Below are positions 33,201 through 39,200 of a DNA stretch of 64,000 nucleotides, in pieces. Source of the stretch: Escherichia coli (GTDB taxonomy: Bacteria; Pseudomonadota; Gammaproteobacteria; Enterobacterales; Enterobacteriaceae); the NCBI RefSeq assembly GCF_017348835.2, contig NZ_CP071375.1; one strand, given 5' to 3'. The position numbers were made by a program. The first letter of the stretch is position 1. Each line of letters starts with the position of its first letter.

Positions 33201-36200
33201 CGAGAGATTGAGAAATGGCGCATATACAACTGGTCAAACAAACCTCTTCTGGTTTACTTCTCCCGGCGACGCCGGAGAGTTGCGATTTTCTGCATCAAAT
33301 CAAAATAGGTGAGTGGATACACGCAGACTTTAAGCGTGTGCGTAACTACGCATTCCACAAGCGTTTTTTCAAACTCCTGCAACTGGGATTCGATTACTGG
33401 ACTCCGGTCGGTGGGGCGATCACGCCTCGCGAACGAGAACTGCTGTCTGGTTTCGTGGATTACCTGTGCGAATCAGTTGGTCGGGAACACACATCAGCCC
33501 TGAGTGATGCCGCAGAGCAATACCTTAACACCGTTGCGACTCGTAGAACCCGGGATACGGCGTTGCTAAAGTCGTTTGAGGCTTTCCGCGAGTGGGTAAC
33601 CATTCAGGCCGGATTTTACACCGAGCATATTTATCCGGACGGTAGCCGTGGGCGTCGGGCAAAATCCATCGCTTTTGCGAATATGGACGAAGTCGAGTTT
33701 CAGCAGGTTTATAAATCTGTACTGAATGTGCTGTGGAACTGGATTCTGTTCCGTAAATTCTCCTCTCAGGAGGAAGTTGAAAATGTGGCCGCACAACTAC
33801 TGGAGTTTGCGTAATGGTGAATTTACGTAAAGCGGCTAAAGGCCAGATGTGCCAGATCAGAATCCCTGGCTACTGCAATCACAATCCCGAAACCTCTGTG
33901 CTGGCGCATTACAGGCTGGCGGGGACGTGCGGAACAGCGACAAAACCACACGATATGCAGGCGGCGATAGCCTGTAGCTCATGCCACGATCTAATCGACG
34001 GGCGGGTAAAAACCAGCGATTACACCAAAGAAGAATTGCGCCTGATGCATGCTGAAGGGGTTTTTCGCACACAAGAAATCTGGAGAAAGAAAGGTCATTT
34101 ATGATTTACCCAACGAATACAGGAAAAAGCGGAGAACACCTTCGCCTCACCACGCTGGAAAGTGTCTGGATTCAGGGAAAACTACGTATGTGGGGGCGCT
34201 GGTCGTATATTGGCGGTGGCAGGTCAGGGAATATGTTCAATCAGTTGTTGGCATCCAAAAAACTGACGAAAACAGCCATTAATGAAGCCCTGCGCAGAAT
34301 GAAAAAAGCGGGAATAGAGAAAGCTGAGCTGGAAGCGTTTTTGCGAGAGATGATCAACGGCAAGCAAAAGAGCTGGCTGGCGCATTGTACTGATGCAGAG
34401 GCGTTATGTATTGATCGAGTCATAAGTGAGGTGCTGGCAGAGCATCCAGGATTGATTTGCATTCTCCGGCAACGCTATGAAGGGCGGGGGATGGCTAAGC
34501 GCAAAATGGCTGAATTGCTAAATGATGCACACCCAGAGTGGTGTTTTAGCACATGCGAAAAACGGATTGCTAATTGGTTAGCTGTTGCTGAGTATGCCCT
34601 ATATATTCCCATGCGTGAATCATTTGCTGAGAAAATGGCTTGATTTCTTACGTATAAACTGCTTCAATTTTGCTATGCTTCGCAAAGCTGTATCGCGAGG
34701 CGGATTGCAGACATGGACATCGTAAAAAAACCGCTTAATGCGGTTTTTTTACGTCAGGAAAGCAGGGGAGAATGCTGCTAGTTGGGCAACTGGTCTTTCT
34801 GCTCCAAATTATAACAGAGACCAGTTATAGTTTCGGTGCTGTGTTTTTTTTACAATATTGTGATAACACATTGCTGGCGGGAGTTTTGATATTTCTTGGC
34901 AGGGGCTGATGATGCGTTATCCTGATGTCGTCAACTCATATAAAATGAGATGAGAGATCATTGCAGGGTGGTTTGTAATTCGCTGTTTAGCGGGACAATA
35001 TGTTGTCTGATACAAGACACCCGACGCCTCAGATTACTATAATAAAGACGAAGCATCCTTTGTATTGACCAACCGCCTGTTTAGGCGGTTCTTTCTGGGC
35101 TGGTTTATTGTATGCCAAATGATTATTAAAAAGGTTGTGTTAATAACAAAATCCGAAATAATATGCCTGCATATTTTTATCTTGCTTATATTCTGCATAT
35201 TGTGCATAGCAGGCTCATCCCTGCAATCAAAACTGTATGATGAGTATTTTTTGTTTTCCTTTTTTCCAGTCATCTGATGATGACCTGCTTCTTTTTAATC
35301 CGGATCGACATCAGTTTTTTAAGATAATTCCTGCGAGTTATATGCATAAATGCCACAAACTCCGCATTTTATGTGGTTGGGAGTTGCCGGGCGCGCAGTG
35401 AGTTTGCTAAGAAAACTCCTGCATGGTGAATCCCCCTGTGCGGTGGGGTGATACCATTAACCTTTTCTGTCGCCGACAGGTATCACGAACATTTTGTTCA
35501 CCGGGAGGCACCCGGCACCATGCACTTCAATAGATTCTCTCCACATTATGGATATTCTTTCAGAATATCCCACGCAGACTTTGTGTAAATGTTAACAAAT
35601 GTGCGTTTTATTTGATCTGATTCGCTGTTTGAGCGTCCAAAACAACGGTATATATAATCCTTTACTATATGACATATGTGAGGAAAAATGGGTTTTCGTA
35701 GCGCATCAATTCTTACGTTGATTATTAGTGGGATTATTATCGGGTGCACTGATGCTGTATCGACAAATTATCATGACCGTACATCATATTACTCCGATAA
35801 AGCAATAGAGACACAGTATGTGAGTTCATCTGAACGTACTTCTGATGTTAGTGAGGATATCCGTCTGTATGCCCATCAAATCAAGAGCGCCATCGAAAAA
35901 CAGTTCGGGGATGCGAGTAAGTATTCAGGAAAAGAGTGTACACTGAGAATGCATATGGCCCCGAATGGCCTTCTACTGGAGGTTAAAAGAGAAAGTGGAG
36001 ACCTCGATTTATGTCGTGAAGCGATGAATGCGATAAAGAATGCTGATATACCTGCCCCCCCTTCGCCGGAAGTATATAAAGTATTTCAAAATGGGGTGCT
36101 GGATTTTAAACCCTGATATTTATTGTTTTGTAATAAACGGTTTCGGCTTAGGTTTGTTCTGACACAGCTACGGCACTGAGCTAAATTTAGCGGATAGTCA

Positions 36201-39200
36201 GCTCTGAGCCAGTGGCGGACGTAACAACTACTATTGCTGAGATTTTAATGGATTGAGGAGCAAGAAGTGGGATTAAAGAAAATCGTTATGTTGACTTTTT
36301 GGGTCGGTTTTGTTGCGGGATGCACACCTTTACACCCTTCAGATTGCCACAAAACTACTGCTACAGGTAGTTGCAGTTCAGGACGCTGGGATGATCAGGA
36401 TGAATGGGGGGCGCAAGCGCGGGGAATCAGAGCTGCAATTAATGCCAAACTTGATGAGCCGCATAACTGGAAAGGGAAAAAATGCAGGTTGCATATGGAA
36501 TTCTCTCAGGATGGCACGGCGTTAAAAATATCTACCAGTAACGGTGATAAAGCCTATTGCGAAGCGATAAAGTCCGCAGCTCATAAAGCCAAATTTCCGG
36601 CCTTCAACAATCCGGAAGTCTACAGAGATTTTCAGAAATCTGGCTTTGACATGCGAGGTTAGCTCTTCAATTACTATATCTCATTCATAGCAAACTGACA
36701 GATTTGATGATGTTCTATATACGAAACCTGTGATGTCAAGTCTGAGCTAATACAAATAAACATAATATCAGAGAAATACATTTTATTAGCTCGCTACGGC
36801 GAGCTTTTTATATTGCATCGTCTCCAGCATATATATCAATTAAGGCTCTGATTGATGTGTCTGAAAGCCTACACATAATAACTATGCCATCCGTTCCGTG
36901 CGGAGGTGAGGCTATGAAATCCATGGACAAAATTTCAACAGGCATTGCCTACGGCACCTCCGCAGGCAGTGCTGGCTACTGGTTTTTACAGTTGCTCGAT
37001 AGAGTAACTCCGTCACAGTGGGCTGCAATCGGTGTGCTGGGTAGTCTGGTATTTGGCCTGCTGACGTACCTGACAAACCTTTATTTCAAGATTAAAGAAG
37101 ATAAGCGCAAGGCTGCGAGAGGTGAATAATGCCTCCATCATTACGAAAAGTCGTTGCTGCTGCTATTGGTGGCGGAGCAATTGCTATAGCATCAGTGTTA
37201 ATCACTGGCCCAAGTGGTAACGATGGTCTGGAAGGTGTCAGCTACATACCATACAAAGATATTGTTGGTGTATGGACTGTATGTCACGGGCATACAGGAA
37301 AAGACATCATGCTCGGTAAAACGTATACCAAAGCAGAATGCAAAACACTCTTGAATAAAGACCTTGCCACTGTCGCCAGACAAATTAACCCGTACATCAA
37401 AGTCGATATACCGGAAACAACGCGCGGCGCTCTTTACTCATTCGTTTACAACGTGGGTGCTGGCAATTTCAGAACATCGACGCTTCTTCGCAAAATAAAC
37501 CAGGGCGATATCAAAGGCGCATGTGATCAGCTACGTCGCTGGACATATGCTGGCGGTAAGCAATGGAAAGGTCTCATGACTCGTCGTGAGATTGAGCGTG
37601 AAATCTGTTTGTGGGGTCAGCAATGAACAGAGTAACCGCGATTATCTCCGCTCTGGTTATCTGCATCATCGTCTGCCTGTCATGGGCTGTTAATCATTAC
37701 CGTGATAACGCCATTACCTACAAAGCCCAGCGCGACAAAAATGCCAGAGAACTGAAGCTGGCGAACTCGACAATTACTGACATGCAGGTGCGCCAGCGTG
37801 ATGTTGCTGCGCTCGATGCAAAATACACGAAGGAGTTAGCTGATGCGAAAGCTGAAAATGATGCTCTGCGTGATGATGTTGCCGCTGGTCGTCGTCGGTT
37901 GCACATCAAAGCAGTCTGTCAGTCAGTGCGTGAAGCCACCACCGCCTCCGGCGTGGATAATGCAGCCTCCCCCCGACTGGCAGACACCGCTGAACGGGAT
38001 TATTTCACCCTCCGGGAACGACTGGTAATGATGCAGGCCCAACTTGAAGGTGCTCAGCAATACATAACCGAGCAGTGTTTAAAGTAAAATCTTAACTACA
38101 ATATGATTCATTTTGATGATTGTTTCATAAGGAACAGTGAAGTAAGATCTAAGAGGAGTTAAATTTTATACAGTATAATCATAATATTGCAGCAAGGTGG
38201 TTATAATTGAAAGAATATTTAGATATGAATACATCTCATGTAAGAGTTGTTACTCATATGTGTGGGTTCCTGGTTTGGCTCTATAGTCTTTCAATGTTGC
38301 CACCAATGGTTGTAGCATTGTTTTATAAAGAAAAAAGCCTGTTCGTTTTCTTTATAACTTTCGTTATATTTTTTTGCATTGGTGGCGGAGCGTGGTATAC
38401 AACTAAGAAATCTGGCATTCAATTACGTACCCGTGATGGGTTTATTATAATTGTAATGTTTTGGATTTTGTTTTCTGTTATTAGTGCATTCCCTTTATGG
38501 ATTGACTCAGAACTTAATTTAACGTTCATTGATGCTCTGTTTGAAGGGGTTTCTGGAATAACAACAACAGGAGCAACTGTAATTGATGATGTTAGTTCAT
38601 TACCTCGGGCATATTTGTACTATCGGTCACAGTTAAATTTTATAGGTGGTTTAGGAGTTATTGTTCTGGCGGTTGCTGTATTGCCATTATTGGGTATTGG
38701 TGGTGCAAAGCTTTATCAGTCAGAAATGCCGGGGCCATTTAAGGATGACAAACTCACTCCCCGCCTGGCCGATACGTCACGGACACTGTGGATAACTTAT
38801 TCTTTATTAGGTATTGCTTGTATTGTCTGTTATAGACTTGCAGGAATGCCTTTGTTTGATGCTATTTGTCACGGGATTTCCACAGTTTCGCTTGGTGGTT
38901 TCTCAACTCATAGCGAGAGTATCGGATATTTTAATAACTATTTGGTTGAGCTGGTGGCTGGTTCTTTTTCCCTGCTATCGGCTTTCAACTTCACTCTTTG
39001 GTATATTGTTATTAGCAGGAAAACGATAAAACCTTTAATCAGAGATATTGAACTTCGTTTCTTTCTGTTAATAGCCTTAGGGGTGATCATTGTTACCTCT
39101 TTCCAGGTCTGGCATATAGGTATGTATGACTTGCATGGAAGTTTTATTCATTCGTTTTTTCTTGCCAGCTCCATGCTCACTGATAATGGTTTAGCTACGC

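Follow-up and report, generated by a model that had tools for sequence, protein, structure and literature searches.

Two lipoprotein genes in the late region of a Rac-like prophage

The DNA analysed here (the window) is a stretch of 64,000 nucleotides from the Escherichia coli contig NZ_CP071375.1 and represents a lambdoid, Rac-like prophage that occupies the ttcA site. Between the gene for its Q-like late antiterminator and the gene for its holin lie two genes, here called ORF1 and ORF2, each of which encodes a complete TolA domain III (TolA-III, the C-terminal head of the host protein TolA) behind a lipoprotein signal, with a similarity to TolA-III that is far beyond chance. They are organized as follows.

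35688-36116, + strand: ORF1, 142 residues; signal, residues 1-20; linker, residues 21-50; TolA domain III, residues 51-142 (35838-36113)
36267-36662, + strand: ORF2, 131 residues when read from a GTG; Cys-containing linker; diverged TolA domain III, residues 44-131 (36396-36659)

Both products show the usual lipoprotein pattern of a charged n-region, a hydrophobic h-region and a lipobox of the form [LVI][ASTVI][GAS]C, which reads MGFR...IIGC in ORF1 and MGLKK...VAGC in ORF2. As read from the sequence, the N-terminus of ORF1 is MGFRSASILTLIISGIIIGC, with Cys20 (codon 35745-35747) as the lipobox cysteine, and that of ORF2 is MGLKKIVMLTFWVGFVAGC, with Cys19 (codon 36321-36323) in the same role; the +2 residue is Thr in both cases. 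A Shine-Dalgarno sequence, GAGGA, stands 5 nt 5' of the ATG of ORF1, and another, GAGGAG, 6 nt 5' of the GTG of ORF2 at 36267. The NCBI Prokaryotic Genome Annotation Pipeline (PGAP) starts ORF2 21 nt later, at the ATG at 36288. We prefer the GTG because of its Shine-Dalgarno sequence and because a plasmid homologue of ORF2 has an ATG (MGVKKIV...) at the equivalent codon; furthermore, a start at 36288 would lose the positively charged n-region.

The +2 residue governs the sorting of bacterial lipoproteins. Given the Thr in both proteins and the lack of Asp at this position in any of 57 lipoprotein-type relatives, targeting to the outer membrane by the Lol pathway is predicted, and the inner face of that membrane is the probable destination of ORF1 and ORF2. 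The signal and linker of ORF1 (residues 1-50) are predicted to be disordered in the structural model. The linker of ORF2 contains two cysteines, C27 and C36, that are missing from ORF1-type proteins; together with the lipid-modified Cys they form the motif C-x7-C-x8-C (residues 19-43, 36321-36395), which is conserved in the ORF2 subfamily and also present in the relatives P0049, P0081, P0165, P0056 and P0117. This pattern suggests that the linker of the ORF2 subfamily carries a disulfide-stapled loop that is absent from ORF1-type proteins.

Sequence and predicted fold of the TolA heads

The Pfam profile of the TolA C-terminal domain, PF06519, matches residues 49-140 of ORF1 with E=3.2e-23 (model positions 4-96 of 96) and residues 44-125 of ORF2 with E=1.5e-14 (model positions 10-92 of 96). 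In a phmmer search of the PDB sequences, ORF1 residues 55-142 aligned without gaps to E. coli TolA residues 334-421 (E=5e-28), and ORF2 residues 51-129 to TolA residues 341-419 (E=5e-9). Over TolA 334-421, identity is 52 of 88 residues (59%) for ORF1 and 27 of 88 (31%) for ORF2. The disulfide-forming pair of E. coli TolA, C363-C388, is retained as C84/C109 in ORF1 and C73/C98 in ORF2, and is invariant in the sequence alignment.

AlphaFold models of both proteins were of high confidence in this domain, with a predicted local distance difference test score (pLDDT) above 90 over residues 51-142 of ORF1 and of 95-98 for the ORF2 domain. When superposed by Foldseek, the predicted ORF1 model matched TolA-III of PDB entry 2X9A with a root-mean-square deviation (rmsd) of 0.7 A over 88 columns and a template-modelling (TM) score of 0.95, and the predicted ORF2 domain matched 3QDP with an rmsd of 1.1 A over 85 columns and a TM score of 0.91. 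Both models have the alpha/beta fold of TolA-III, with a three-stranded sheet that ends in the C-terminal strand beta3.

The initial annotation of this DNA had placed two lipoproteins with the lipoboxes IIGC and VAGC at 35688-36662 and had described a TolA-III-like C-terminus. The sequence reading agrees on the frames and signals, and the Pfam and phmmer matches and the disulfide cysteines agree on the domain; of the checks proposed there, the pairwise alignment (gapless in the case of ORF1) and the superposition of predicted structures extend the likeness from a motif to the whole domain. Its description of the second gene as a diverged copy stands insofar as ORF2 does carry a diverged TolA-III. 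A recent tandem duplication is rejected, as identity between the two proteins is no higher than 28-29% and they fall into separate subfamilies.

Distinction from genuine TolA

ORF1 and ORF2 are homologous to TolA domain III (PF06519; PDB entries 1TOL, 1S62, 2X9A and 3QDP/3QDR) and share its predicted fold, disulfide and beta3, but TolA itself has an N-terminal transmembrane helix followed by a long, Ala/Lys-rich helical domain II, neither of which is found in the 142 residues of ORF1 or the 131 residues of ORF2. In place of the TolA anchor there is a cleavable lipoprotein signal and then a disordered linker of 25-30 residues. The gene context differs as well: TolA is encoded in the tol-pal operon (tolQ-tolR-tolA-tolB-pal), whereas the present genes have a Q-like gene, a holin, an endolysin and spanins as neighbours, and their relatives lie on phages and plasmids.

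The family profiles tell the same story. Against NCBIfam NF007065 (cut-off 213 bits), ORF1 scored 107.8 bits and ORF2 53.7 bits, and the match was limited to profile positions ~293-386 of 387. Against TIGR02794 (cut-off 59.45 bits), ORF2 scored 47.2 bits and fell under the cut-off, while ORF1 passed it with 75.6 bits by way of the last ~100 of 362 positions only. Hence the RefSeq/PGAP label of ORF1 and of entries such as WP_000506936.1, 'tolA: cell envelope integrity protein TolA', arises because the C-terminal domain alone passes the TIGR02794 cut-off, and it is an over-annotation. Relatives in IMG are labelled 'colicin import membrane protein', and thousands of database entries that go by this name or by that of TolA are in fact short lipoproteins of mobile elements, systematically misnamed whatever their function may be. 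In the PHROGs collection, the sole strong match of both ORF1 and ORF2 is phrog_5772, whose function is not annotated (all others had E >= 0.0035), and PADLOC gave no hit and has no model that matches either protein.

ORF1 and ORF2 as mobile accessory cargo

Of 5,426 complete E. coli genomes, 758 contain a match of >99% identity to a 1.6-kb query that spans the two genes, and the same cassette is present in phage mEp460_ev081. It moves as a mosaic block.

35497-37130, + strand: mobile mosaic block of ~1.6 kb, comprising leader, ORF1, ORF2, terminator and holin gene

This block occurs at 97.8-99.3% identity in 10 phage and prophage backgrounds, mEp460_ev081 included, with differing sequence on the Q side and, in those backgrounds that have downstream sequence, with an endolysin that is either absent or only ~33% identical. 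Its ends are sharp, the left one always at 35497 and the right one at 37116-37130.

Each of the two genes is also found apart from the other. A single-gene variant of ORF1 (65-68% identical) is present in 121 genomes. In the viral contig L048, which carries such a variant, homology to the Stx2a phage Stx2_95 extends over tRNA-Met and tRNA-Arg, ends at 4743 and returns at 5570, upstream of nanS-p; the 826 bp of L048 in between hold a TolA-like lipoprotein gene in place of the third tRNA and of stx2A/stx2B. The initial annotation had likened the site to the lambdoid cargo slot that carries stx, and in L048 the ORF1 variant replaces exactly stx2AB. L048, an Stx-like prophage, also encodes an OmpC/NmpC-like porin (2649-3791, - strand), whose gene lies on the upstream side of both the tRNA genes and the lipoprotein gene, so that its late region holds two envelope-related cargo genes.

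Genes of the ORF2 type, at ~87% nucleotide identity, were found on 607 plasmid records. On two conjugative plasmids, an IncI1/B/O and an IncK2/Z plasmid, the gene lies between the relaxase gene and trbC, and on pO157 its neighbours are a hok-type toxin gene and toxB; a further copy, 83% identical, comes after umuDC, where a prophage remnant ends. In the IncI1 plasmid pESBL, nikB is followed directly by trbC, and the ORF2-type gene, which pESBL lacks, is therefore an accessory insertion on plasmids too; for the same reason a role of the plasmid copies as part of the conjugation machinery was considered and rejected.

ORF1 and ORF2 are thus accessory cargo rather than core phage genes: they are present or absent between conserved neighbours, as seen both in the varied Q and endolysin sequences around the block and in L048 between tRNA-Met/tRNA-Arg and nanS-p. 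The nearest parallels are the Q-to-holin cargo of lambdoid phages (stx1/stx2, or nmpC in DLP12) and bor/lom of lambda, which share the slot, the presence/absence polymorphism and the terminator. The products of stx and nmpC are a toxin and a porin, respectively, whereas those of ORF1 and ORF2 are neither, and the promoter of their own is only a candidate.

A large family of standalone TolA-III lipoproteins

A word-indexed homologue search found only close E. coli relatives; the family became visible in an exhaustive profile search of 1.84 billion representative sequences, which gave 706 hits. Among the best 150 of these 706 hits, 55 were short proteins (<=170 residues) with a lipobox by the strict rule; these make up 55 of the 91 short relatives, several more of which have a near-consensus lipobox or a Sec signal. 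The short lipoprotein-type relatives fall into at least 55 distinct clusters at 50% identity. The named members belong to Citrobacter, Serratia, Kosakonia and Klebsiella, and every one of them carries the automatic label TolA or 'colicin import membrane protein'. The neighbourhood of one relative, P0053, could be viewed on contigs of 1-2 kb only and gave no information on its context. Standalone TolA-III lipoproteins are a large, uncharacterised family in Enterobacterales. Many of its domains are 55-68% identical to E. coli TolA-III, and in 17 of 61 cases the nearest neighbour is a long TolA-like protein that is not a lipoprotein. As far as sequence comparison goes, this suggests either repeated capture of the host head or a constraint to resemble it.

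Several relatives are fusions. Prophage lipoproteins of 204-235 residues that join a TonB_C domain to TolA-III are encoded in L075 (4226-4909), L090 (8001-8630) and L091 (297-932); the protein from L075 matches TonB_C with E=5e-12 and TolA with E=4e-24, and another relative, P0050, matches them with E=3e-7 and E=2e-30, respectively. Such genes occupy cargo positions: one belongs to the nin region of a lambdoid prophage of Citrobacter freundii, and another comes immediately behind ogr, where a P2-like prophage ends. WP_213354707.1 of Citrobacter freundii is an example of these fusion lipoproteins. A third architecture is found in L070, where a protein of 326 residues (4317-5297) with a Sec-type signal that is not of the lipoprotein kind is encoded immediately before a holin-endolysin-spanin cassette; it starts with a TolA/TonB-like domain, continues with a stretch rich in Ala and Lys that is reminiscent of TolA domain II, and finishes with a TolA-III domain whose sequence is close to that of E. 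coli TolA-III.

Residues 1-90 of P0122 and P0196, i.e. their TonB_C halves, match phrog_1267 'Rz-like spanin' with E=6e-7 and 3e-9. Either phrog_1267 is misannotated or TonB_C-like lipoproteins have been mistaken for o-spanins.

It might be argued that such genes are decaying fragments of host tolA without function, which owe their prominence to automatic annotation. The label 'tolA' that PGAP gives to ORF1 would fit this, as would the many truncated or frameshifted copies in the databases (P0010, P0033-P0046). However, intact frames with signal, lipobox, Shine-Dalgarno sequence and disulfide cysteines are kept in the 758 genomes, the relatives form at least 55 distinct clusters and include named members in four other enterobacterial genera, the predicted fold is confident, and 59% identity to the host gene is too low for a recent accidental capture of ORF1. 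Conservation effectively refutes this explanation, and we regard it as very improbable indeed.

Position in the late region

The surroundings of ORF1 and ORF2 in the window are given below; a NinB-like gene, an HNH gene and the Q-like antiterminator gene form the upstream side of the cassette.

34101-34643, + strand: Q-like late antiterminator (phrog_753 'anti-termination protein Q-like', E=4e-79; DUF1133 in PGAP)
35391-35577, + strand: match to the STnc100 small RNA (Rfam RF02076, 86.6 bits against a gathering score of 47, E=3.5e-18)
35629-35658, + strand: candidate sigma-70-like promoter (TTGAGC-18-TATAAT, 10/12 matches), 30 nt upstream of the ORF1 start
36788-36815, + strand: intrinsic-terminator-like hairpin and T tract between ORF2 and the holin gene
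36914-37129, + strand: class II holin ('class II holin family protein' in PGAP; phrog_9876, phrog_20), which we take to be essentially the S21 pinholin
37129-37626, + strand: endolysin, the start of the lysis genes after the holin, presumably with an N-terminal signal-arrest-release segment
37623-38087, + strand: Rz spanin of the lysis cassette
37843-38028, + strand: Rz1 lipoprotein, embedded in Rz

These assignments bear out the position between a Q-like antiterminator and a holin that had been claimed for the two genes. The STnc100 match, in the gap that separates the Q-like gene from ORF1, probably belongs to the late-promoter leader or to a terminator region, and it contains the left end of the mobile block at 35497. 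No tRNA genes were found in the Q-to-holin gap of the window, in contrast to Stx phages. The hairpin after ORF2 has a 7-bp stem with 5 G-C pairs and a loop of 4, is followed by TTTTTATATT, and has a folding energy of -13 kcal/mol (z=-3.3 against shuffled sequences), which makes for a convincing predicted terminator.

The same position invites the idea that the two proteins take part in lysis. Made late and under the control of Q, TolA-III mimics could titrate the TolB N-terminus and cause a transient tol phenotype, in which the outer membrane leaks and forms vesicles, that would aid the release of virions or toxin. The two genes do lie between Q and the holin gene and travel with the latter in one block, the 326-residue protein of L070 is encoded directly upstream of a holin, the ORF1 variant of L048 sits in the stx slot (the release of Stx depends on lysis), and the TonB_C part of the fusions weakly matches a spanin family. 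Yet holin, endolysin and Rz/Rz1 already make up a full lysis cassette without ORF1 and ORF2, related phages either do without the two genes or have other cargo in the slot, and the strong terminator hairpin separates ORF2 from the holin gene. Moreover, close relatives reside on ~600 plasmids and at prophage ends beside umuDC or ogr, where there is no lysis programme and where constitutive damage to Tol-Pal would be costly. On balance we consider a role in sabotaging the envelope at lysis unlikely.

Ligand-binding surfaces of the heads

TolA-III presents two edges to its ligands. The N1 domain of the phage protein g3p, colicin N and the TolB N-terminus all bind strand beta3 by strand addition; the TolA substitutions D418P and K420P abolish beta3 binding and give a full tol phenotype, and colicin N binds TolA with a dissociation constant of 1 uM, as opposed to ~40 uM for TolB (PMC4339652). 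The opposite edge, L375-P380, is the binding site of colicin A, which makes cation-pi contacts with K368, K379 and K396 and whose Tyr58, the partner of Lys368, is essential for the complex (PMC3365938). In ORF1, beta3 (L417-D418-F419-K420-P421 in TolA) is unchanged, reading LDFKP, and the strand that colicin A uses, LLDIKP, is mostly retained as LLEVKR, with K379 and K396 kept; in ORF2, the changes in beta3 are conservative (F-D-M-R-G).

The conserved beta3, the strand to which TolB binds, together with the full tol phenotype of D418P and K420P, also speaks for the sabotage of Tol-Pal at lysis, against which stands the low affinity of TolB for TolA. It likewise suits a milder function in envelope physiology, by which the tethered head would modulate Tol-Pal, the mobility of Pal or vesiculation and so change resistance to detergent, bile or serum, or the output of vesicles, in the manner of Bor and TraT. 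Small outer-membrane lipoproteins that act as fitness genes are a known class, of which Bor and TraT are examples, and the copy on the virulence plasmid pO157 would be in keeping with this. On the other hand, the known role of TolA is to pull TolB off Pal (PMC7391070), which an unenergised head cannot do, and the joining of TonB_C and TolA_C in one lipoprotein would be left unexplained. We regard such an envelope function as quite unlikely; the remainder of the probability belongs to functions that we have not thought of.

ORF1 and ORF2 as possible decoys for TolA ligands

The explanation that we tentatively favour, while holding it to be just short of probable, is that ORF1 and ORF2 are unenergised decoys, tethered to the outer membrane, against Tol-dependent colicins or the g3p of filamentous phages. 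Each lipoprotein would dangle its TolA head on a flexible linker of ~25-30 residues below the outer membrane; neither could be energised by TolQR because both lack the TolA anchor and the long helical domain. Positioned just under porins and pili, these heads could capture ligands bound for the real TolA head, namely the translocation domains of group A colicins, g3p N1 and possibly the TolB N-termini that are exposed in colicin-TolB complexes. Such unproductive binding would stall import and render the host of the prophage or plasmid tolerant, while the weak affinity for TolB would spare Tol-Pal; the reported affinities (1 uM for colicin N, ~40 uM for TolB) favour selective trapping of this kind.

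Three observations fit the decoy explanation best. The first is a mirror-image experiment, in which g3p-N1 placed in the periplasm altered sensitivity to deoxycholate and colicin A and reduced the sensitivity to phage uptake by 4 logs, an effect ascribed to sequestration of TolA (PMC10424213). The second is the presence of copies on plasmids. Filamentous phages, whose primary receptors are conjugative pili, need TolA-III in the next step of entry; plasmid copies fit the decoy explanation because such pili expose their hosts to TolA-dependent phages. In PDB entry 2X9A, TolA-III is seen in complex with the g3p of IF1, a phage of the I pilus. The third is the TonB_C-TolA_C fusions, which fit because what the TonB and TolA heads most obviously have in common is their exploitation by colicins and phages. 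The full TolA-III domains with their native-like predicted folds, the predicted outer-membrane targeting and the behaviour of the genes as cargo also speak for a decoy. Overall, the comparative evidence, i.e. the unchanged beta3 of ORF1, the plasmid relatives and the fusions, makes a decoy more plausible than it was when the initial annotation proposed it.

Several points weigh against a decoy. Lys368, whose colicin A partner is essential, is replaced by His in ORF1, and K368, K379 and K396 are all lost in ORF2. An AlphaFold model of g3p-N1 joined through its natural Gly-rich linker to ORF2(37-131) in one chain, built on a block alignment, did not reproduce the arrangement in the fusion crystal structure 1TOL (TM 0.54, rmsd 12.8 A); the ORF2 domain was confident in this model, but N1 had a pLDDT of only 52-65 for want of alignment depth, and the outcome counts neither for nor against binding. 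ORF1 and ORF2 lie in the late operon downstream of Q; if they were expressed only after induction, the protection of lysogens would fail. Promoter-like sites number 11 in this region of the window, which is not above the 7.6 +/- 2.8 of shuffled sequence, and counts upstream of three relatives were no higher than in shuffled sequence, with no convincing promoter among them. A decoy that also trapped the TolB N-terminus could damage Tol-Pal. Finally, no characterised prophage or plasmid TolA-like protein was found in the literature.

A decoy would have precedents of several kinds. Cor of phi80, N15 and HK022 and Llp of T5 are, like the predicted ORF1 and ORF2 products, small phage-encoded lipoproteins of the outer membrane. 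They protect the cell that carries them from other phages and from a colicin by blocking entry. Yet Cor and Llp inactivate a surface receptor, FhuA, whereas ORF1 and ORF2 would mimic a periplasmic co-receptor and trap the incoming ligand; no homology to Cor or Llp was seen among their PHROG matches, and the likeness is one of function by analogy. Exclusion by g3p, or by periplasmic g3p-N1, targets the same interaction that is proposed here, that of g3p-N1 or a colicin with TolA-III; unlike g3p, which occupies the TolA of the host, ORF1 and ORF2 would occupy the TolA-binding site of the invader and leave host TolA free. A further parallel is offered by the dominant-negative heads made in the laboratory: overproduction of TolA-III in the periplasm reportedly leads to colicin tolerance (Levengood-Freyermuth and colleagues, J Bacteriol, 1993), and soluble TolA-III or TonB C-terminal heads are said, from that work and from that of Howard in 2001, to compete with the native transducer and to confer tolerance to colicins and phages. 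These constructs are artificial, soluble, overexpressed and toxic in their side effects, whereas ORF1 and ORF2 are natural, diverged and predicted to be lipid-anchored; and, unlike the single-head laboratory constructs, some of their natural relatives join the TonB and TolA heads in one protein.

A broader form of the decoy explanation is possible, though we hold it with somewhat less confidence: phages and plasmids of Enterobacterales may share a widespread and so far unrecognised class of entry-blocking defences, made up of unenergised copies of the periplasmic heads of both envelope energy transducers, as outer-membrane-tethered TolA-III alone, as TonB-CTD (C-terminal domain)-TolA-III fusions and as secreted multi-domain forms, all of which would trap colicins and the entry proteins of phages. 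The two paralogues of this cassette would serve different sets of ligands. ORF1 would then be a close mimic of E. coli TolA, and ORF2, of the type common to conjugative plasmids, may shield piliated hosts from pilus-specific filamentous phages. As to its kind, each protein could plausibly be described, on present sequence comparisons, as an entry-exclusion lipoprotein of mobile elements that is built from a captured host co-receptor domain.

If the decoy explanation is true, a prophage protein that blunts Tol-dependent colicins, filamentous phages or both would be present in roughly a sixth of complete E. coli genomes, and a related protein would be encoded by several hundred plasmids, among them pO157 and resistance plasmids of the I complex. 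The principle of exclusion would then be a new one, in which a periplasmic co-receptor is mimicked rather than a surface receptor masked, and the TonB_C-TolA_C fusions suggest that, if it holds, it reaches the Ton system too. Such proteins would help to account for the colicin insensitivity found in nature, which limits antimicrobials based on colicins, and they would bear on hosts for phage display and on plasmid-targeting phage therapy, because a conjugative plasmid could protect its host against phages that are specific for the pilus.

Other cargo and rearrangements of the prophage

The prophage carries further cargo. Directly after the spanin genes, as in the Rac prophage of K-12, lies the potassium transporter gene trkG (38207-39682, + strand; G+C ~0.33-0.40), a further cargo gene beside the lysis cassette. 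Just upstream of the nin/Q region, at 29405-32798 (+ strand), collinearity with the prophage of strain SCU-104 identifies the anti-phage pair iteA (ATPase) and iteS (S8 peptidase) as a second defence-type cargo. The match of the window to the SCU-104 chromosome is only partial and does not continue past 40245. Relative to SCU-104, an IS3-family insertion at 22968-24277 (- strand), with overlapping orfA (108 residues) and orfB (295 residues), interrupts the early-left region, and ~5.2 kb of the early region are absent near 26459-26463. By the annotation of SCU-104, the absent stretch comprises the rest of recE, racC, ydaE, kilR, sieB, racR, ydaS and ydaT, and the prophage in the window therefore appears to lack its repressor region.

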